A DNA stretch of 64,000 bases, taken from NCBI GenBank assembly GCA_028817225.1, contig JAPPQC010000026.1, forward strand, positions 8,631 to 72,630, in the 5' to 3' direction. Positions within the stretch are counted from its first letter, which is position 1. Every line of letters starts with the position of its first letter. Under the pieces are notes generated by a model. That model searched no databases. It was given only the letters and a program-made list of their open reading frames with translations, and was not told where the DNA came from. Below are positions 5,400 through 51,678 of the stretch, in pieces. Made by a program: the position numbers and the translations under genes. Source of the stretch: Gammaproteobacteria bacterium (GTDB lineage: Bacteria; Pseudomonadota; Gammaproteobacteria; Poriferisulfidales; Oxydemutatoraceae).

Positions 5400-6377
5400 T
5401 CAGGCGACGCGGTCGGGCAGGTCGCCGCCGTCCAGCCACGCGCGCAGGTTTTTCAGCACGCGCCGCCCCATCGCAATCCGCGTCTCGCGCGACGCGCTGC
5501 CGAGGTGCGGCAGCAGCACGGCGTTTTCCAGTTCCAGAAAGCCCGGGTCAAGGTTCGGCTCGCCTTCAAAGACATCCAGGCCGGCGCCGGCGATGACGCC
5601 TTTTTTCAGCGCCTCAATCAGCGCCTGGTTGTCAATGACATCGCCGCGCGCGGTGTTGATCAGGAACGAGCCGGGCTTCATCAGCGCGATGCGCTCGCGG
5701 TTCATCAGGTGGCGGGTCTTGTCGCCGCCGGGGCAGTGCAGCGACAGGAAGTCGGCGTCCGGTATCATCTCTTCAAGCGTCGGGTACGAAGTGGCGCCGA
5801 CTTCGCGCACGGCCTTTTCCGGCGGCTCGAACGGGTCGTGGAACAGTATCTTCATGCCGAAGCCGAAGTGCGCGCGGCGCGCGACGGCGCAGGCGATGCG
5901 CCCGAAGCCGACCAGCCCCAGCGTCTTGCCGGTGACCTTCGTGCCGAGCATGTGCGTCGGGCGCCAGCCGCTCCACGCATTGGCGCGGACATGGCGCTCG
6001 CCCTCGCCGATGCGCCGCGCCGCCGTCAGCATCAGTATCATGGCGATGTCGGCGGTGCAGTCGGTCAGCACTTCGGGCGTGTTGGTTACGCGAATGCCGG
6101 CCTTCTTGGCGGCGTCAAGGTCAATGTGGTTGAAGCCGACGCCGAAGTTGCCGAGAAATTGGCAGCGGATGCCGTCGGCGCCGAGCGTCTCGGCGTCCAT
6201 CGGGTCGGTCACCGTCGGCAGCACGCAGTCGGCGCTGCGCAGCGCGTCCTGCAATTCGCCGCGCGACATCGGGCGGTCTTCCTCGTTGAGGCGCACATCG
6301 TTGCACATCTCGCGCAGTTCGTCCTCTACGACGGACGGCCAGCGCCGCGTGACAATGACGGTCGGTGTTTTGCTCAT
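5400..6377 (-). CDS. hprA: D-isomer-specific 2-hydroxyacid dehydrogenase (hydroxypyruvate/glycerate dehydrogenase by context)
   Basis: NAD Rossmann 'GLVGFGRIACAVARRA' and catalytic R/E/H pattern. Last gene of the serine-cycle cluster. Strong SD 'AGAGGAAA' 6 nt upstream. Confidence 0.8.
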   Translation of the reverse strand: MSKTPTVIVTRRWPSVVEDELREMCNDVRLNEEDRPMSRGELQDALRSADCVLPTVTDPMDAETLGADGIRCQFLGNFGVGFNHIDLDAAKKAGIRVTNTPEVLTDCTADIAMILMLTAARRIGEGERHVRANAWSGWRPTHMLGTKVTGKTLGLVGFGRIACAVARRAHFGFGMKILFHDPFEPPEKAVREVGATSYPTLEEMIPDADFLSLHCPGGDKTRHLMNRERIALMKPGSFLINTARGDVIDNQALIEALKKGVIAGAGLDVFEGEPNLDPGFLELENAVLLPHLGSASRETRIAMGRRVLKNLRAWLDGGDLPDRVA

Positions 6378-6395
6378 GGCGGTTTCCTCTTGCTT

Positions 6396-7286
6396 TTATT
6401 TGCGGTCTTTCAGCACTTTGGCCATCGTCGCGCCCAGTTCCGACGGGTTCGGCGCGATGACGACGCCGGCGTTTTTCAGTATTTCGGTCTTCTCGGCGGC
6501 GCTCTCGCCCTTGCCGGAGACGATGGCGCCGGCGTGGCCCATGCGCCGCCCCTTCGGCGCCGTCAGCCCGGCCACATAGGCGACCACCGGCTTGGTCATG
6601 TAACTGCGGATGTATTCGGCGGCCTCGGCTTCCTGCGGGCCGCCGATTTCGCCGATCATCATCACCGCGCGGGTTTCAAGGTCGGTCTCGAACATCTCGA
6701 GGATGTCGCGGTGCGAACTGCCGTTGATGGGGTCGCCGCCGATGCCGACGCTGGTGGAGATGCCGATGCCAGCGGCCTGCATCTGCGACGCGGCCTCGTA
6801 GCCGAGCGTGCCGGAGCGGGCGACGACGCCGATGTTGCCGGCCTTGTAGATGTGGCCGGGCATGATGCCGAGCATCGCCTTGCCGGGGCTGATGGTGCCG
6901 GCGCAGTTGGGGCCGGTCAGCACCATTTTCTTCTCGCGGCGGTAGCGGCGCATGAAGCGCTTGACGCGCATCATGTCGAGCGCCGGGATGCCGTCGGTGA
7001 TGGCGACGCAGTAGCGAATGCCGCCGTCGGCGGCCTCCATGATGGAGTCGGCGGCGGCGGCGGCGGGCACGAACAGCACGCTGGCCTCGGCGCCGGTCTC
7101 GCGCACCGCGTCCTTGACGGTGTTGAAGACGGGCTTGCCGAGGTGGTCGGCGCCGCCCTTGCCGGGCGTCACGCCGCCGACGATGCGGGTGCCGTATTCC
7201 ATCATCTCCTTGGCGTGGAAGGTGCCGATCTTGCCGGTGAAGCCCTGCACGATGACGCGGGTTTTGTCGTCTAACAGTATGGACAT
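6396..7286 (-). CDS. mtkB: malate--CoA ligase (malate thiokinase) alpha subunit (SucD paralogue)
   Basis: CoA-binding/SucD-type alpha subunit ('VIVQGFTGKIGTFH'). Called Mtk rather than Suc because of the adjacent mcl/sga/hprA. Confidence 0.72.
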   Translation of the reverse strand: MSILLDDKTRVIVQGFTGKIGTFHAKEMMEYGTRIVGGVTPGKGGADHLGKPVFNTVKDAVRETGAEASVLFVPAAAAADSIMEAADGGIRYCVAITDGIPALDMMRVKRFMRRYRREKKMVLTGPNCAGTISPGKAMLGIMPGHIYKAGNIGVVARSGTLGYEAASQMQAAGIGISTSVGIGGDPINGSSHRDILEMFETDLETRAVMMIGEIGGPQEAEAAEYIRSYMTKPVVAYVAGLTAPKGRRMGHAGAIVSGKGESAAEKTEILKNAGVVIAPNPSELGATMAKVLKDRK

Positions 7287-7305
7287 GGTCGTTTCTCCGC
7301 GGCGC

Positions 7306-8472
7306 TCAGCGCCGGCTGGCGGCCTCGACGGCCTTGTGGGCGGCTTCGCCGAGCGTTTCCGTCGAGACCAGCGGCAGGCCGCTGTCTTTCAGCATCTTGC
7401 GCCCGACTTCTACATTGGTGCCGGACAGCCGCACGACCAGCGGCACCTTCAGGTTGATGGACTGGATGGCCTTGATCAGGCCCTCGGCGATCCAGTCGCA
7501 GCGGTTGATGCCGGCGTAGATGTTGACCAGCATCGCCTTGACGCTCTTGTCTTGCAGCACCAGTTCAAACGCCTTGGCGACGCGCTCCGGCGACGCGCCG
7601 CCGCCGATGTCGAGGAAGTTGGCGGGTTCGCCGCCGGCGTGCTTGATCATGTCCATCGTCGCCATCGCCAGGCCGGCGCCGTTGATCATGCAGCCGATGT
7701 TGCCTTCCAGGCCGACATAGCTGAGGTCGTGGTCGGAGGCGCTGGTCTCGCGCGGGTCTTCCTGCGACTTGTCGCGCATCTCGGCGATTTCCGGGTGGCG
7801 GAACAGCGCGTTGTCGTCCACGATCATCTTGGCGTCGAGCGCGATCAGTTCGCCGCCCTTGGTGATGACCAGCGGGTTGACCTCGACGAGGCTGGCGTCG
7901 GACTTGATCAGCGCGCGGTAGCAGCCGGTGATGGCGCGTATCGCGTCTTTCAGCAGGGTTTTCGGGATGTTCAGCGCGAACGCGAGTTCGGCGGCCTGAA
8001 AGCGGCGCAGGTCCACCGCCGGGTCAATCGGGATGCGGACAATCGAGTCGGGGCGCTCGGCGGCGAGTTCCTCGATGGCCATGCCGCCGCTGGCCGAGGC
8101 GACGGCGACGATGCGCTCGCTGGCGCGGTCGAGGACGAAGGCGAGGTAGAGTTCGCGGTCAATGTCGGTGCCGGCCTCGATATAGACCTTCTCGACAATC
8201 TTGCCCTGCGGCCCGGTCTGCACCGTCGCCAGCCGCGTGCCGATCATCTGGTTGGTGGCTTTCTGCACCTCTTCCTCGCTTTTGCACAACTTGACGCCGC
8301 CGGCCTTGCCGCGCGCGCCGGAATGAATCTGCGCCTTGACGACGCACGCCGGCGTGCCCAACTGGTGGTAGCAGGTGGTCGCCTGCGCCGGGCTGTACGC
8401 CAGTTTGCCGGCGGCGATGGGGACGCCGTATTGCTGCAAGATTTCCTTCGCCTGGTATTCGTGTATGTCCAC
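7306..8472 (-). CDS. mtkA: malate--CoA ligase (malate thiokinase) beta subunit (SucC paralogue)
   Basis: 'MDIHEYQAKEIL...VVKAQIHSGARGKAGGVKL' ATP-grasp beta subunit. 'AQIH.GARGKAGG' is MtkA-like rather than SucC-like. Confidence 0.72.
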   Translation of the reverse strand: MDIHEYQAKEILQQYGVPIAAGKLAYSPAQATTCYHQLGTPACVVKAQIHSGARGKAGGVKLCKSEEEVQKATNQMIGTRLATVQTGPQGKIVEKVYIEAGTDIDRELYLAFVLDRASERIVAVASASGGMAIEELAAERPDSIVRIPIDPAVDLRRFQAAELAFALNIPKTLLKDAIRAITGCYRALIKSDASLVEVNPLVITKGGELIALDAKMIVDDNALFRHPEIAEMRDKSQEDPRETSASDHDLSYVGLEGNIGCMINGAGLAMATMDMIKHAGGEPANFLDIGGGASPERVAKAFELVLQDKSVKAMLVNIYAGINRCDWIAEGLIKAIQSINLKVPLVVRLSGTNVEVGRKMLKDSGLPLVSTETLGEAAHKAVEAASRR

Positions 8473-8537
8473 TGGTTTTGTCTCCTGTCGCGGCGGCGCG
8501 CGGGCGCGCCGGGCGTGGTTGGTTCAGCGTCGCCGGT

Positions 8538-9485
8538 TCAGCCTTGCCTGGCCTCGATGACCCGGGCCATCTTGACGACATTCTCGGCCATGCGCGCCGA
8601 CGCCGCGTCAATCATCTTGCCGTCGAGCGACGCCGCGCCGCGGCCTTCGGCGGCGGCTTTTTCCAGTTCCTCGAGGATGCGGCGCGCCTTGTTGACCTCG
8701 GCTTCGGGCGGCGAGAACACCTCGTTGGCGAGCGCGATTTGCGACGGGTGGATTGCCCACTTGCCTTCAATGCCGAGCGCCGCGGCGCGGCGCGCCGCCA
8801 GCGTGTAGCCTTCGGCGTCGTTGAAGTCGCCGAACGGGCCGTCTATCGGGCGCAGGCCGAAGGCGCGGCACGCCACCGTCATCCGCGTGATGGCGGCGTG
8901 CCACTGGTCGCCGGGGTAGTCGGGGTTGAGGCCGCCGATGTTGACGGTGCGCGCGCGGTTGCTGGCGGCGTAGTCGGCGACGCCGAAATGCAGCGCCTCA
9001 AGCCGCGTGCACGGCGACGCCGCGATGCGCTCGACATTGGCCATGCCGAGCGCCGTCTCAATCAGCGCCTCGAGGCCGATGCGGTGGCCGATGCCCTTGG
9101 CCTCCTCGATTTGCGACACCATCACATCCACGGTGTAGAGGTCGTCGGGCACGCCGACTTTCGGCACCAGGATGGTGTCCAGATGCTGTCCGGCCTGTTC
9201 GACGACATCCACGACATCGCGGTACATGTAATGCGTGTCAAGGCCGTTGATTCGCACCGACACGGTCTTGCCGGCGTTCTTCCAGTCAAGCGAGTTGAGC
9301 GCCTCGATGATGTTCTTGCGCGCCTGCAACTTGTCGTCGGGGGCGACGGCGTCTTCCAGGTCGAGGAACACATAGTCGGCGTCGCAGGCAAGCGCCTTTT
9401 CAATCATGCGCGGGTTGGAACCGGGCACCGCCAGTTCGCTGCGCTGCAAGCGCTCGCGCGCCGGTTCAAATCTTGTGTGGCTCAT
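8538..9485 (-). CDS. mcl: L-malyl-CoA/beta-methylmalyl-CoA lyase (HpcH/HpaI-CitE aldolase family)
   Basis: 'YVFLDLEDAVAPDDKLQARKN...' CitE-like TIM-barrel lyase in a serine-cycle context. Confidence 0.8.
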   Translation of the reverse strand: MSHTRFEPARERLQRSELAVPGSNPRMIEKALACDADYVFLDLEDAVAPDDKLQARKNIIEALNSLDWKNAGKTVSVRINGLDTHYMYRDVVDVVEQAGQHLDTILVPKVGVPDDLYTVDVMVSQIEEAKGIGHRIGLEALIETALGMANVERIAASPCTRLEALHFGVADYAASNRARTVNIGGLNPDYPGDQWHAAITRMTVACRAFGLRPIDGPFGDFNDAEGYTLAARRAAALGIEGKWAIHPSQIALANEVFSPPEAEVNKARRILEELEKAAAEGRGAASLDGKMIDAASARMAENVVKMARVIEARQG

Positions 9486-9572
9486 CGCGTGTTCTCCGGC
9501 ACGGCGCGGACGGCGGACTTGCGGGCCTTGCGCGCCGGCAATCTTGTGTGGTTCATCTTTGCGTCCCCTGCG

Positions 9573-10835
9573 TCAGCGCCGCACGATGGCGGATTTGGAC
9601 GCCTTGCGGCGGCCTTTCTTCGGCGCCGGCGCCGCTTTCGCGCTGGACAGTTTGGCTTTCAGCGGCGGCGCCGTGCGGCGGTAGTATTCCAGCGCGGCGC
9701 CGACGCCCGCGCCCGGCTCGATGCGAAGCCCGGCGTCGCGCATCGCCATCTCGGCGGTGGCCAGCGCCGCCAGCACCGAAGTCTCGTTGTGGTCGCCCAG
9801 GTGGCCGATGCGAAACGCCTTGCCGGCCAGCACCGACAGCCCGGCGCCGAGCGACAGGTTGTAGCGGTGGTAGGCGATTTCAATGACATCGCGCGCGTCA
9901 AAGCGCGGCGGCACGCGGATGGCGGTGACGGTGTCGGAATGCCATTTCGGGGCCTTCGCCACCAGTTTCAGGCCCCAGGCGTCCACCGCGCGGCGCACGC
10001 CCTCGGCGAGGCGGTGGTGGCGCTTGAAGATGTTCTCCAGCCCTTCCTCCTCAAGCAGGATTTGCAGCGACCGTTTCAGGCCGTGCAGCAGCGGGATGGA
10101 CGGCGTGTACGGAAAGAAGCCGTCCTTGTTGGCGTTGATGTGGTCCTGGATGTCGAGAAAACACCGCGCGCATTTGGCGGTGTTTCGGGCGCGCAGCGCG
10201 CGGCGGCTGAAACAGACGATGGCCATGCCCGCCGGCAGCATGAAGCCCTTTTGCGAGCCGCTGACGGCGACATCCACTTCCCATTCGTCCATGCGGAAAT
10301 CAATGCTGGCGATGGAACTGACGCCGTCCACATAGAGCATCGCCGGGTGGCCGGCGGCGTTCATCGCGCGGCGCAGGCCGGCGATGTCGCTGGTGACGCC
10401 GGTGGCGGTCTCGTTGTGGCACACCATGACGGCCTTGATCTCGTGCTTGTGGTCGCGTTCAAGGCGGCGTTTGAAACGCTCGACCGGCACGCCTTCGCCC
10501 CACGGCACATCAATCGTCTCGACATCAAGGCCGATGCGAACCGCGAGATCCCACCACAGATGGCTGAACTGGCCGAAGCGCGATGTCAGCACCTTGTCGC
10601 CCGGCGACAGCGTGTTGCTGAGCGCGACTTCCCAGCCCGCGGTGCCGGTGGCCGGAAACAGGAAAGTGCGCCCGCTGCCGGTCTTGAAAACGCGGTTGAC
10701 ATCCTTCAGCATCGGTTTCGTCAGTTTGGCGAAATCGGGCCGGCGGTGGTCTTCCTGCGGAATGTTCATCGCGTTCTGAATCGAGACCGGAATGTTGGTC
10801 GGGCCCGGCACGAACAGGAAATTGCGTCCTGGCAT
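9573..10835 (-). CDS. sga: serine--glyoxylate aminotransferase (class V aminotransferase)
   Basis: 'MPGRNFLFVPGPTNIP', PLP-Lys region 'SGSQKGFMLPAG'. Start placed at the internal ATG at 10835, which has a GAGGA SD. Has an unusual Lys/Arg-rich C-terminal tail. Confidence 0.85.
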   Translation of the reverse strand: MPGRNFLFVPGPTNIPVSIQNAMNIPQEDHRRPDFAKLTKPMLKDVNRVFKTGSGRTFLFPATGTAGWEVALSNTLSPGDKVLTSRFGQFSHLWWDLAVRIGLDVETIDVPWGEGVPVERFKRRLERDHKHEIKAVMVCHNETATGVTSDIAGLRRAMNAAGHPAMLYVDGVSSIASIDFRMDEWEVDVAVSGSQKGFMLPAGMAIVCFSRRALRARNTAKCARCFLDIQDHINANKDGFFPYTPSIPLLHGLKRSLQILLEEEGLENIFKRHHRLAEGVRRAVDAWGLKLVAKAPKWHSDTVTAIRVPPRFDARDVIEIAYHRYNLSLGAGLSVLAGKAFRIGHLGDHNETSVLAALATAEMAMRDAGLRIEPGAGVGAALEYYRRTAPPLKAKLSSAKAAPAPKKGRRKASKSAIVRR

Positions 10836-11001
10836 GGTGGTTTGGTCCTCTGTTGTTGTGACTTGTCGTCGTTGGTTGTGGAATTGAAGCCCGGCTGTCG
10901 CGCCCGCCAAAGGCCGCTGCGGGGGCGCAATTATGCCCCAACAACGGGGTGATGCCAAGCCCCCCCTGATGGGGTGCCCCCGGTGCGGGCGTTGCCGCCG
11001 G

Positions 11002-11784
11002 TCAGCGGCGCACGCCCAGCACGATGCCCTTGGCGGCCAGCATCTCCAGTGTTTGCTGGCCGCCTTGCAGCGCCTTTTCGGTGTCGGCGACCTTCAGGTC
11101 GGCGACGACGCGGCGGATTTGTTCGGCGCCGCTGACATCGCCGCCGTCGGTGATTTTCTCCAGCAGCAGCGCGCTCGGCAGGTTCAGTTCCATGAAGCGG
11201 ACGCGGTCGTCGTCAGCGCGCCACACCACCAGCCAGGTCGGCGTCTTGCCCGGTTCGCGCGGCGTGAAGTGCGGGCCGATGCGGTGCACCGGCCATTCGT
11301 AGGCGTGCTGCCACGCCAGCGGCGACGCCACCGGCACGCCGGCCAGCAGGTCGCCGTCGCGGTCAATGGCGCTGTGGTCGGCGGCGTCGTCGGCGCGCGC
11401 CAGCGCCAGTTCCAGCCATTCATAATGCGCCAGTTCCAGCAGGAACGGCGGGTCGCAGGGGCGCGCCTCGTGTTCGTTTTCCAGGTAATCAATGAATTCG
11501 CGCGAGATTTCGGCGAAGTACGGCGAGTGGCAGCGGTGGCGCGCGTAGAAACGCCGCGCCAGTTCGCGCCAGTCGTCCTTGCGGTAGAGCGTTTTCAGCA
11601 CCGGGAAGGCGTCGGTCAGAAAGCCCTCCATATTGCGGATGAACAGGCCGCGATAGACTTCAAGACGCCGCTCTTCAAGCCCCGGCGGCGGCGGTTTGGA
11701 CGGGTCGCGCAGATGCGCGGCAAACTGGCGCTGAATGGCGCGGAAGTTGCCCGGCGGTGTTTCGGGTGGCGTTTTTTCAGGCAA
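11002..11784 (-). CDS. DUF2063 domain protein (MbnC/BufC-like partner of MNIO enzymes)
   Basis: Typical DUF2063 length and sequence. Immediately downstream of the DUF692 gene. Apparent TTG start. N-terminus built from CCTGAAACA-type repeats ('PEKTPPETPPG'). Confidence 0.7.
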   Translation of the reverse strand: MPEKTPPETPPGNFRAIQRQFAAHLRDPSKPPPPGLEERRLEVYRGLFIRNMEGFLTDAFPVLKTLYRKDDWRELARRFYARHRCHSPYFAEISREFIDYLENEHEARPCDPPFLLELAHYEWLELALARADDAADHSAIDRDGDLLAGVPVASPLAWQHAYEWPVHRIGPHFTPREPGKTPTWLVVWRADDDRVRFMELNLPSALLLEKITDGGDVSGAEQIRRVVADLKVADTEKALQGGQQTLEMLAAKGIVLGVRR

Positions 11785-11878
11785 TGTTTCAGGCGGTGTT
11801 TCGGGCGGCCCTTGCAGGCGTGTTTCAGACGGCGTTTCAGGCGTGTTTCAGCCGCGTTGTTTCAGGCATGTTTCAGGC
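11757..11878. repeat. Degenerate tandem array of about 10 units of (N)GTTTCAGG(C) (minus strand CCTGAAACA) spanning the DUF692 3' end, the intergenic region and the DUF2063 5' end
   Basis: Direct reading: ggtgtttcggg/ttttttcagg/caatgtttcagg/cggtgtttcggg/.../catgtttcagg. Unit length 10-15 nt. Confidence 0.7.
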
Positions 11879-12721
11879 GGCATCCGGCACCGGGTGCTGG
11901 TCTTGCAGTGCGCGGATGCGGTTCACCTCGTCCAGCAGGCGCGGCAGCGGCGGGAAATTGAAGTCGCGCTCCAGCAGCGTCGGCACCGCGCCGAACAGCG
12001 AGTAGGCTTTTTCAAGCAGGCGCCAGACCGGGGCGATGACATCGGCGCCGTGCGTGTCCACAATCAGGTCGTCGGCTTCGTTGTAATGGCCGGCGATGTG
12101 GCACCAGGCGATGCGCTGCGCCGGCAGTTTTTCAAGGTAGTCTTCGGCGTTGAAGTGGAAGTTGACCGAATTGACATAGACATTGTTGACATCCAGCAGC
12201 AGGTCGCAGTCGGCTTCCTCGAGCACGAGGCGGAGGAAGTCGGTTTCGTCCATCTCGCGGCCCGGCGCGAGGTAGGCCGACACATTCTCGACGGCGATGC
12301 GCTGGCCGAGAAAGTCCTGCACATCGCGGATGCGCGCGGCGACATGGCGCGCGGCCTCTTCGGTGAACGGAACCGGCATCAGGTCGTAGAGGTGCGCCTC
12401 GTCGGCGCAGTAGCTCAGGTGCTCGCTGTAACGGCGGATGCGGTGCTCGCGCAGGAAGCCGCGGATGTCGGCCAGCAGTTTCATGTCGAGCGGCGCCGGG
12501 CCGCCGAGCGACAGCGACAGGCCGTGACAGACGAACGGCCAGCGCTCGGTGAAGCGGCGAAAACGCCGTCCCGACGCGCCGCCGACGCCGATCCAGTTCT
12601 CCGGCGCGGTCTCCATGAACGACACCTGCGAAGGCCGCGCGGCCTCGAGTTCGTCCATCAGGCCGCGCCGCAGGCCGAGGCCGGCGCCGGCGACCGGGTA
12701 ACTGCCGGCGGCGTGCGTCAC
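11873..12721 (-). CDS. DUF692 family multinuclear non-heme iron oxidative enzyme (MNIO; MbnB/BufB/TglH-like)
   Basis: N-terminal 'AGAGLGLRR' and TIM-barrel xylose-isomerase-like fold signature. GTG start overlapping the doxX stop (GTGA). Confidence 0.8.
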
Positions 12722-13176
12722 CGCCGGTCGCGCCCGGCGATGATGTGGTCAATGCTGAATTTTCCGGCGCCGCTGAGCAGCAGCGGAACCAGCATCACCA
12801 TGAAAATCAGCGGCAGTTTGTAGCCGTTGTCGCAGACATTGTAGCCGCTGCCGGCGTGCACGCTGGCCCACGCCACCGCGTCGAGTATGATCAGGGCGGC
12901 GGCCCAGAAGCGCGTGCCGAGACCGAGCGCCAGTCCGAGCGCGCCGATGATCTCGACCCAGGTCGCAAGAAACCAGCTGACGGCGACCGGCAGCACATTG
13001 AACGGAAACGGAAAGTCGTCGGCGATGTTGGCGAACCAGTTCTCGCCCTGCAACTTGGCGAGGCCGGCCTCGTAGAATTCCCACGCCAGCAGCAGGCGCA
13101 GCCCCAGCAGCGACAGCCAGGCGCCGATGGAGGACAGGCCGCGGTTCAGCGAGCAGATTGTGCTTTGAAGGCTCAT
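12718..13176 (-). CDS. DoxX family membrane protein
   Basis: Start placed at the internal ATG at 13176 (GGAG SD), giving a 152-aa 4-TM DoxX-like protein. The longer ORF from 13341 is probably an artefact. Confidence 0.75.
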
Positions 13177-13364
13177 CGGAGGCTGCTCCGGGGGCCGGGT
13201 TGGGGGTGGGGTGTGGAAGTCATGGTGGGTCTCCTTTATGTAGGTTGGCCTGACGCTGGTGGGGGTTATTATAACCCCCTCCCTCTCTGTTGCCCGCCGC
13301 GCCCGCAAAGCAGATATAATCGGCGATACGCCAACCCGCAACCCACCTGGAAGGATTATTTATT

Positions 13365-14120: not shown

Positions 14121-14903
14121 CTACCGGCGGGTGGCGGGTGGTCTTCTCTTCAGGTTCCACTTGCAGTCCATTTCCCACCAGTGCTCCGGCACCTCGTTGA
14201 ACTGGCCGTCCTTGAGTATGCCCCAGCCCTTCGCCGCCAGCGTGTAGTTCGCGGACAGCAGCCGGTTGAACGCGGCTTCATGGTTGTCCGGCAGGTCGCT
14301 GTAGCAATTCCGGTATTTGTCTTTTGTCACCTCGCACGAGATGCTGCCGATTCTGCCGCGCCGGATGAGCGGTTCCAGGGTTTTCAGCACCTCAAGATCC
14401 ATTCCCTGTATGTCGCTGATGTAATCGTCAATGTAGTCAACGCCTTGTTGTTCAAGGAAACGGCACAGGTTCACGCACGGCACCCGGATTGTCTTGACGA
14501 TGCGGATTTCATCGTTGAAATTTTCGTCGAGGCGGCCGATTGAAGAGGAGGCGCCGCCATCGTTGCTGGTGATGTTGAATTCAATCTCGCCGTCGCGGTC
14601 GGCGGCGGCGAGATTGAAAAGGCGGACATTCGGGCATGACCGGTATTCCTCCTGAAGTTCCGCGAACAATTCCGGGTTGGCCTCGAACCCGTAGCACACC
14701 CGGTACCTGTGGAACAGCGGCCTGAACGAACGCCCCGTGTGCAGGCCCACATAAACCAGGACATCTTTTCTTCTTTTCGCCAGATTGCGGGTGAAATCCA
14801 TTGCCTGCTTCAGCATTCTTTTGCCGTTCGGCTTTTTGCCCGCGAGCAGCCCGCGCAGATGGAACAGCAGGAAGCCGGCGATGGGAGGGCGGCGGGATTT
14901 CAT
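14121..14903 (-). CDS. FkbM family methyltransferase
   Basis: Methyltransf_21-like sequence. Noticeably lower GC (about 55%) than its surroundings. Start overlaps the pfp stop (ATGA). Confidence 0.7.
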   Translation of the reverse strand: MKSRRPPIAGFLLFHLRGLLAGKKPNGKRMLKQAMDFTRNLAKRRKDVLVYVGLHTGRSFRPLFHRYRVCYGFEANPELFAELQEEYRSCPNVRLFNLAAADRDGEIEFNITSNDGGASSSIGRLDENFNDEIRIVKTIRVPCVNLCRFLEQQGVDYIDDYISDIQGMDLEVLKTLEPLIRRGRIGSISCEVTKDKYRNCYSDLPDNHEAAFNRLLSANYTLAAKGWGILKDGQFNEVPEHWWEMDCKWNLKRRPPATRR

Positions 14904-42965: not shown

Positions 42966-43042
42966 GGGTCTGTAGCTCAGCTGGTTAGAGCACACCCCTG
43001 ATAAGGGTGAGGTCGGTGGTTCAAGTCCACCCAGACCCACCA
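42966..43042 (+). tRNA. tRNA-Ile (anticodon GAT)
   Basis: Near-identical to E. coli tRNA-Ile(GAU). Anticodon loop CU-GAU-AA. Confidence 0.92.
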
Positions 43043-43060
43043 CGATGCACCGCGATGCGC

Positions 43061-43136
43061 GGGGCCGTAGCTCAGCCGGGAGAGCGCCTGCTTTGCAAGC
43101 AGGAGGTCAGGAGTTCGATCCTCCTCGGCTCCACCA
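43061..43136 (+). tRNA. tRNA-Ala (anticodon TGC)
   Basis: Near-identical to E. coli tRNA-Ala(UGC), 'GCCTGCTTTGCAAGCAGG'. Confidence 0.92.
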
Positions 43137-43307
43137 GCGGGGCGGCGAAACCCAATGCCGTTTTATTTGCAAGCCGCATTGGGCTTCGCTGCAAGCGAAG
43201 GGTTTTTTGACAATTAGCAAAGCCAGGATTCGCGGAAACATCCCGTTTCCGTGAATAACATTGTATCCAACACCAGTAACCTCGGCGGAGACTGCTTGAG
43301 GTTATAT

Positions 43308-46192
<2,885 letters not shown>

Positions 46193-51558: not shown

Positions 51559-51678
51559 TGCCTGGCGGCCATAGAGTGCTGGTACCACCCGATCCCATTC
51601 CGAACTCGGAAGTGAAACGGCGCATCGCCGATGGTAGTACGGGGCCTCCCCGTGTGAGAGTAGGACACCGCCAGGCAT
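51559..51678 (+). rRNA. rrf: 5S ribosomal RNA
   Basis: 'TGCCTGGCGGCCATAG...GAAGTGAAAC...GATGGTAGT...GAGAGTAGGACACCGCCAGGCAT' aligns with E. coli 5S along its whole length. Confidence 0.9.

Follow-up and report, generated by a model that had tools for sequence, protein, structure and literature searches.

A precursor-less variant of the hvf peptide maturation cassette conserved in a sponge-symbiont clade of Gammaproteobacteria

The stretch analysed here is a 64-kb segment of gammaproteobacterial contig JAPPQC010000026.1 (referred to in its whole length as the window). Its minus strand carries three co-directional genes, hvfX, hvfB and hvfC, within positions 11002–13223, which correspond to an hvf operon from which the gene of the peptide precursor, hvfA, is missing. 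A first-pass annotation of this DNA had read the region as a minus-strand operon of a DoxX protein, a multinuclear non-haem iron oxidative enzyme (MNIO; DUF692) and a DUF2063 partner, in this order, and domain searches recovered all of the families concerned. The genes are as follows:

12718..13176, minus strand: hvfX, DoxX-family inner-membrane protein of 152 aa (PF07681, E 1e-17)
11873..12721, minus strand: hvfB, MNIO/DUF692 enzyme of 282 aa (PF05114, E 2e-100)
11002..11784, minus strand: hvfC, PME-type-1 partner of 260 aa, counted from the TTG at 11784 (PF09836 and PF22106)

The start of hvfX is the ATG at 13176, and a 152-aa protein is likewise called on six metagenome contigs sharing an identical HvfB; the 207-aa open reading frame (ORF) from a TTG, by which the gene had been drawn out to 13341, is an over-extension. 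Coupled starts had been proposed throughout the operon. This holds for hvfX and hvfB, as the GTG start of hvfB overlaps the hvfX stop codon (GTGA, 12718–12721), but not for hvfB and hvfC, which are separated by a gap of 88 nt containing a 12-nt tandem repeat, and no Shine-Dalgarno sequence is visible at the TTG start of hvfC. The HvfC protein joins an N-terminal DUF2063 domain (PF09836) to a C-terminal RRE-type domain, NGO1945_C (PF22106). As first described, the operon is flanked by a Pal-like lipoprotein gene, the next gene on the plus strand (TIGR02802, 125.5 bits), and, downstream of hvfC, by a class-V aminotransferase gene of the sga type.

All three proteins score above the cut-offs of the NCBIfam equivalog models for the Hvf system, HvfX with 140 bits against NF050144 (cut-off 80), HvfB with 421 bits against NF003818 (cut-off 360) and HvfC with 296 bits against NF050145 (cut-off 142). 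The comparison of MNIO subfamilies suggested in the first-pass annotation was carried out with the enzyme for the four subfamilies other than TglH; it stayed below the cut-offs for BufB (NF050167, 262 bits, cut-off 310), MbnB (TIGR04159, 45 bits, cut-off 325), ApyH (72 bits, cut-off 400) and ChrH (38.5 bits, cut-off 600). Among solved structures, 3BWW, a DUF692 protein from Histophilus somni, is nearest (E 4e-74), and the second best, another DUF692 protein (8HCI), reaches just E 2e-15. By its family scores, the locus is an hvf-type (oxazolin/“captophorin”) maturation cassette for a ribosomally synthesised and post-translationally modified peptide (RiPP), with an enzyme of the HvfB type.

In non-typeable Haemophilus influenzae (NTHi), the operon reads hvfX (NTHI1440), hvfA (NTHI1441), hvfB and hvfC, and HvfA is a 95-aa peptide with a Sec signal and AEGKCGEGKCG repeats (Manley et al. 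2024, PMC11252979). HvfB together with HvfC oxidises the cysteines of HvfA to Cu-binding 5-thiooxazoles, the structure to which the product has been reassigned, by means of a mixed-valent diiron cofactor whose formation requires HvfC (10.64898/2026.07.17.739211). Because hvfX-hvfA-hvfB-hvfC is the characterised Haemophilus order, the window carries an hvf operon minus hvfA. The canonical place of a precursor gene is therefore between hvfX and hvfB and not upstream of doxX (PMC11252979); this slot is empty in the window, where the 4-nt overlap of the two genes leaves no room for a precursor. Given that the enzyme is of the HvfB type, the absent partner is an EGKCG-repeat HvfA and not a DUF2282 or MbnA peptide. 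The first-pass annotation had concluded that the substrate is either encoded elsewhere or non-canonical; this reading and the absence of a cysteine-rich precursor in cis, from which it started, are supported, and the identity of the missing partner is hereby refined.

A hidden Markov model (HMM) of HvfA, built from eleven HvfA sequences located next to HvfB relatives, was run on every stop-to-stop segment in all six frames. The held-out control loci L014, L023 and L024 were recovered with E values of 1e-12 to 1e-29, and the top value across the 64-kb window was 0.24, with no HvfA. Regular expressions for a repeated GxCG motif (six frames) and for DUF2282-like cysteine patterns had no match in the window, and one for the NPF...GY leader motif had none in the window and the clade loci scanned (the clade is described below); the test for bufferin precursors consisted of regular expressions and heuristics rather than Pfam models. 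A screen of the window for signal-peptide-like ORFs with at least three cysteines returned just a ferredoxin-like ORF and off-frame junk. Off-frame cysteine-rich ORFs, among them the tandem repeat read in its third frame (KHACK/KHCLK), were discarded, having no start codon or signal peptide and the composition of off-frame high-GC DNA. Accordingly, there is no HvfA-, DUF2282- or other cysteine-rich secreted ORF in the 64-kb window, which bears out the earlier statement that no such gene is recognisable next to the operon. Gene callers often miss small low-complexity ORFs, so a canonical precursor beside the operon might have been overlooked; with six-frame HMM and regular-expression scans of the window and all clade loci yielding no precursor (top E 0.05–0.9) and clear positive controls, we regard such an oversight as extremely improbable.

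The hvfA-less arrangement is not confined to the window. A neighbour-joining tree of 145 HvfB sequences places the window in a clade of 20 tips, together with its closest relatives, L007 (a sponge metagenome-assembled genome, 95% HvfB identity) and L008 (Ca. Porisulfidus, 84%), and with further metagenomic genomes; Porisulfidus is a known sponge symbiont (PMC12988363). Genomic contexts were read for ten lineages of the clade (the window, L007, L008, L028–L031, L034, L037 and L038), and in each of them hvfX abuts hvfB and hvfC follows. At the junction of hvfX and hvfB, L007 and L008 have the same GTGA as the window. Upstream, pfk and pal flank the operon in seven of the ten loci, with other neighbours in L031 and L034 and only pal readable in L007; downstream, sga in the window gives way to cysG or other genes elsewhere. 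As the flanks vary, the cassette has persisted as a unit through rearrangements. Outside the clade, among loci with readable upstream DNA, an hvfA of the EGKCG type lies directly 5′ of hvfB in 18 cases, some of them of an EF-hand chimaera type, and the nearest outgroups in the tree are hvfA-positive (L017, the L036 Porticoccus group and L012). The locus thus is a precursor-less variant of the hvf/captophorin system that is conserved in a sponge-symbiont clade.

Two further HvfB-HvfC-DoxX loci without an HvfA-like ORF within 4 kb lie outside the clade and were treated as independent hvfA-less cases, namely L032, with the gene order DUF1841-hvfB-hvfC-doxX, and L033 (39% GC), whose DoxX protein of 217 aa contains a large insertion. 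The precursor gene has hence been lost or relocated more than once. L033 had appeared at the base of the clade in a small tree, a position that it lost once all 145 sequences were used. A scan of metagenome contigs with HvfB gave seven loci, none of which belongs to the clade.

In the seven clade loci checked, hvfX, hvfB and hvfC are full length without a single internal stop codon, at HvfB identities down to about 67%. Pairwise dN/dS within the clade ranges from 0.13 to 0.40 for hvfX and hvfB and from 0.26 to 0.52 for hvfC, compared to 0.19 for the neighbouring sga and 0.33 for pal. The hvfA-less layout has been kept, with intact ORFs under purifying selection, in ten lineages. The iron-ligand residues expected of a DUF692 enzyme are all present: H66, H101, E145, D177, N180, H208, H212, D222, H224 and E251 are invariant across the 20 clade and 125 other sequences. 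By sequence correspondence, these positions would form the metal site. Through the 3BWW alignment, N180, D222 and H224 pair with N175, D242 and H244 of NTHi HvfB, the site-3 Asn, Asp and His that are essential in that enzyme (10.64898/2026.07.17.739211).

These data bear on whether the cassette is a decaying remnant, its substrate gene having been lost in a reduced genome and the rest heading for pseudogenisation. The small genomes of the clade (closed contigs of 1.85–2.38 Mb), the weak TTG start of hvfC behind a strain-variable tandem repeat and the hvfC dN/dS of 0.52 between the window and L007 would agree with decay. We nevertheless consider it quite improbable because the ORFs are intact, selection is purifying, with dN/dS well under 1 and near that of sga, and the metal-site residues are retained without exception. 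That L001 seems to be without hvfC is likewise no sign of decay, as the alignment shows a run of Ns at the tandem repeat, that is, a scaffold gap and no deletion.

Residues linked to substrate recognition are also retained. R18-R19 and D253-F254 of HvfB correspond to the Arg-Arg pair and to the catalytic Asp and the Phe of EGKCG-type enzymes, a correspondence to FonB Arg15/16 and Asp249/Phe250 drawn by motif position and not from a direct FonB alignment, and R19 as well as E251-R252-D253-F254 are invariant in alignment A6. The Arg-Arg, Asp and Phe residues have been tied to Lys-Cys (EGKCG) substrates (Gadgil et al., 10.1101/2025.11.18.689057).

Among characterised systems, the NTHi hvf operon shares with the window the HvfX, HvfB and HvfC families, the leading position of hvfX, all iron-site residues and the combination of DUF2063 and RRE domains in HvfC. 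The window differs in that it has no hvfA, so that hvfX abuts hvfB, in the HvfB replacements Y149A, H188F and Y190F, in an upstream ORF (uORF) coupled to hvfX and in the tandem repeat between hvfB and hvfC. Fontiphorin/“captophorin” systems have the same MNIO and PME1 core with the Arg-Arg and Asp-Phe motifs, but their class definition includes a cysteine-rich precursor in the locus, of which the window has none, and the fon cluster is without DoxX (Gadgil et al., 10.1101/2025.11.18.689057). Bufferin loci (BufABCD, with Buf1/DUF2282 or Buf2/BUF_6-12Cys precursors; PMC12452194) are built from the same four components, precursor, MNIO, DUF2063 protein and DoxX protein; here, however, the BufB model stays under its cut-off and a DUF2282-like ORF is lacking. 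Methanobactin clusters (MbnABC) resemble the window in enzyme superfamily and in cysteine oxidation by an iron cluster, and are set apart by the MbnB score (45 versus 325), by a partner of the DUF2063 type instead of MbnC and by the absence of MbnA.

The reading that we favour, with a probability of roughly 0.55, is that the hvfXBC machine has been maintained, that hvfA was lost from its canonical slot in the ancestor of the clade and that HvfBC modifies a substrate whose gene lies at another place in the genome. Such arrangements have precedents: about 4,000 MNIO loci are without a recognised neighbouring precursor, and stand-alone precursor genes of the bufferin and EGKCG kinds that are not linked to an MNIO gene have been described (Antoine et al. 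2025, PMC12452194). In this scheme, the clade ancestor probably lost the hvfA that had stood between hvfX and hvfB, and hvfXBC is probably transcribed from a conserved TATAAT box. HvfB would act as a di- or tri-iron oxidase with the same chemistry as in NTHi, its substrate most likely being a Sec-exported, EGKCG-like cysteine-rich peptide or protein encoded elsewhere. HvfX would serve as an accessory membrane component, and the 16-codon uORF would couple the translation of hvfX without itself being a substrate.

Several observations weigh against this reading. A trans-encoded precursor was not found, the DNA read being 64 kb of a genome of about 2 Mb, and no HvfA-like sequence is present within 4–10 kb in any of the ten clade lineages, which cover at least four different genomic contexts. 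A leader profile made from ten HvfA leaders with their first repeat and searched against 5.8 billion proteins gave none on the closed contigs of the clade among the best 120 of 7,337 matches, an outcome that speaks neither for nor against such a precursor. In addition, expression of hvfC is uncertain because its TTG start lacks a Shine-Dalgarno sequence and lies behind the 88-nt repeat. Finally, there are peculiarities in both HvfB and HvfX. In HvfB, Y149A is found in 100% of the clade, against Tyr in 95% of sequences elsewhere, and H188F and Y190F likewise in 100%, against His and Tyr in 99%; F195Y and V124A are clade-specific and clade-invariant too, at sites that are 90–99% conserved among the 125 other HvfB sequences. 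L037 and L038 carry the same replacement motifs as the rest of the clade. In the AlphaFold2 model of HvfB (predicted local distance difference test score 86.7), residue 149 is part of the loop behind the E145 strand, and residues 188–195 come next to the strand and helix to which D177 and N180 belong, on their C-terminal side, which would put the fixed Y149A, H188F and Y190F segments on the catalytic face of the barrel.

The HvfX proteins of hvfA-less loci (window and L028–L032) have, at about residues 107–120, a loop that is 10 aa shorter and contains a conserved cysteine (GYNVCDNG). In contrast, HvfX of the hvfA-linked loci L013–L015 and L024 reads GY(S/A)ITD(H/K)GFGN, with a 10-aa insertion and without the cysteine. 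Within the HvfX sampled, of which four from two lineages are hvfA-linked, HvfX of hvfA-less loci thus appears to be a distinct subtype, and by the positive-inside rule its cysteine-bearing loop would be periplasmic. Together, the fixed HvfB replacements and the HvfX subtype could mean that the substrate has changed.

The cassette might accordingly have been re-targeted, HvfBC and the HvfX subtype acting, after the loss of hvfA, on a non-EGKCG substrate or without a dedicated precursor. Besides the replacements, their modelled position, the short cysteine loop and the empty neighbourhood of all ten lineages, one relative of HvfB would agree with this: the homologue at L022:4168–4938 (60% identity), on a 1.06-Mb metagenome contig of low GC content, has before it no EGKCG peptide but a signal-peptide protein of 256 aa with a CGC motif, perhaps an MNIO substrate of another kind. 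On the other hand, the clade keeps the Arg-Arg and Asp-Phe residues of EGKCG recognition, the comparison of HvfX involves just four hvfA-linked proteins, and the model places the substitutions by segment, not by distance from the substrate. Nor does the RRE-type domain of HvfC, relative to HvfB, evolve faster than in hvfA-positive lineages. Its Nei-Gojobori omega is 0.40–0.88 in the clade versus 0.05–0.26 in hvfA-positive pairs, but this signal of relaxed selection disappeared after normalising to HvfB, the ratio of amino-acid divergence between RRE domain and HvfB being alike in the two groups (0.53 vs 0.55). We consider re-targeting possible, if on the unlikely side, and similarly doubtful is the broader proposition that the clade cassette has long been without a dedicated precursor in cis and is re-tuned for another substrate or for no dedicated RiPP precursor at all.

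The answer matters beyond this locus. MNIO-PME1 clusters occur in about half of the Pseudomonadota reference genomes, several thousand of them without a recognised precursor; the latter, a recognised class, may be dead, trans-acting or of some other use. If the precursor simply lies elsewhere in the genome, as we favour, the finding is ordinary; if the clade cassette is re-tuned, an MNIO-PME1 pair has got free of the one-operon-one-peptide rule. The clade offers a phylogenetically defined test case, with one probable ancestral hvfA excision, ten lineages whose genes are intact and constrained, closed genomes and three diagnostic substitutions on the modelled catalytic face. The closed genomes are OY843752.1 (Ca. 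Porisulfidus, 1.83 Mb) and circular contigs of 2.38 Mb in ERZ25068400, 1.85 Mb in ERZ25072670 and 1.94 Mb in ERZ25070185. The locus would also bear on copper handling in reduced-genome sponge symbionts.

Four further features lie around the three genes, three of them upstream of hvfX and one at the hvfB-hvfC junction:

13173..13223, minus strand: 16-codon leader uORF, whose stop codon overlaps the hvfX ATG (ATGA), with an AAGGAGA Shine-Dalgarno sequence at 13230–13236
13177..13190, minus strand: small hairpin CGGAG-CAGC-CTCCG over the GGAG that closely precedes the start codon of hvfX
13261..13279, minus strand: perfect 19-nt palindrome GGGGGTTATAATAACCCCC with TATAAT (13268–13273), upstream of hvfX
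11775..11880, minus strand: 12-nt tandem repeat of about 8.8 copies with a GCCTGAAAC core, at the hvfB-hvfC junction, encoding the (P)PET N-terminus of HvfC

The uORF, including its Shine-Dalgarno sequence, its overlap with hvfX and its lack of cysteine, is exactly as the first-pass annotation had described it. The peptide could be imagined to be a non-canonical substrate, as it has a strong Shine-Dalgarno sequence, is the sole reading frame upstream of hvfX, and its start, Shine-Dalgarno sequence, length and overlap or stop position are kept in five lineages (window, L007, L008, L028 and L029). However, the peptide sequence is not kept, the peptides being unlike one another (MTSTIHPATGAVSDEP, MTSKTDYSRTRRRSSLR, MHDTTHDRENRAERRR), and in L007 the frame is shifted relative to hvfX and ends 11 nt into it. 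Half of the clade has no uORF but a Shine-Dalgarno sequence for hvfX itself, as in L030, L031 and L034, where a strong one stands directly before the gene. The uORF contains neither a cysteine nor a signal peptide, yet PME-type-1 partners go with Sec-signal, cysteine-containing precursors (PMC12452194), and it lies upstream of hvfX, outside the hvfA slot. A role as substrate therefore has next to no probability in our judgement, and for the same reasons (no cysteine, no signal peptide, a place outside the slot) the uORF is best read as a leader for the translational coupling, or the regulation, of hvfX in this sub-lineage.

The hairpin at 13177–13190 is present in both the minimum free energy and the centroid folds, and its stem is kept in L007 through a G-U pair; the z-score of the whole leader is merely −1.56. 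The TATAAT is kept throughout the five relatives that were aligned, as well as in L028 and L029, and no match to a −35 element was found. This box within GGGGGTTATAATAACCCCC is the probable −10 element of the hvfXBC promoter, and the palindrome could place it within an operator, no regulator gene being nearby. An Rfam scan of the locus returned neither a riboswitch nor a leader family; its only match, to CRISPR-DR20 inside pal (E 0.022), is below threshold. A conserved CCTTCC upstream of hvfX, considered as half of a CueR box, is the Shine-Dalgarno sequence of pal (GGAAGGA) read on the opposite strand.

The tandem repeat has a Tandem Repeats Finder score of 94–115, and its GCCTGAAAC core occurs nine times in the window, where chance would give 0.4, four exact copies lying within the array. 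The number of copies varies between near-identical strains, so that HvfC, with its (P)PET repeats, is either 260 or 264 aa long. In L008 (Ca. Porisulfidus) the array is absent and hvfC starts 7 nt past the hvfB stop codon. The repeat looks like an amplification of the sequence at the hvfB stop and junction.

Between hvfC and sga, some strains (L002:5660–6615, L003) have a DUF4760 gene of 176 aa that is absent in the window (10836–11001), a further indel between strains at this locus. The sga gene has a promoter-like site of its own at 10930–10958 and belongs to a serine-cycle-like cluster on the minus strand, at about 5600–10835, directly downstream of hvfC in the window and also in L001–L003. 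This cluster comprises the sga-type aminotransferase, an HpcH/malyl-CoA-lyase-like protein, a two-subunit CoA ligase (ATP-grasp_2/Ligase_CoA) and a 2-hydroxyacid dehydrogenase. On the other side of the operon, between pal and pfk, lies an FkbM-family methyltransferase gene (14121–14903) with a GC content of 0.53–0.59 versus about 0.66; the near-identical contigs L001 and L002 lack it there, and it looks like a strain-specific insertion. Lastly, the rRNA genes of the window are fragmented. The genes for tRNA-Ile, tRNA-Ala and 23S rRNA are contiguous (42966–46191), with a Na/Ca exchanger gene upstream in place of the 16S rRNA gene, and the 5S rRNA gene (51561–51676) follows 5.4 kb downstream of the 23S rRNA gene, separated from it by four protein genes that encode a PQQ-type glucose/sorbosone dehydrogenase, a cytochrome c, an SRPBCC protein and a TonB-dependent receptor.

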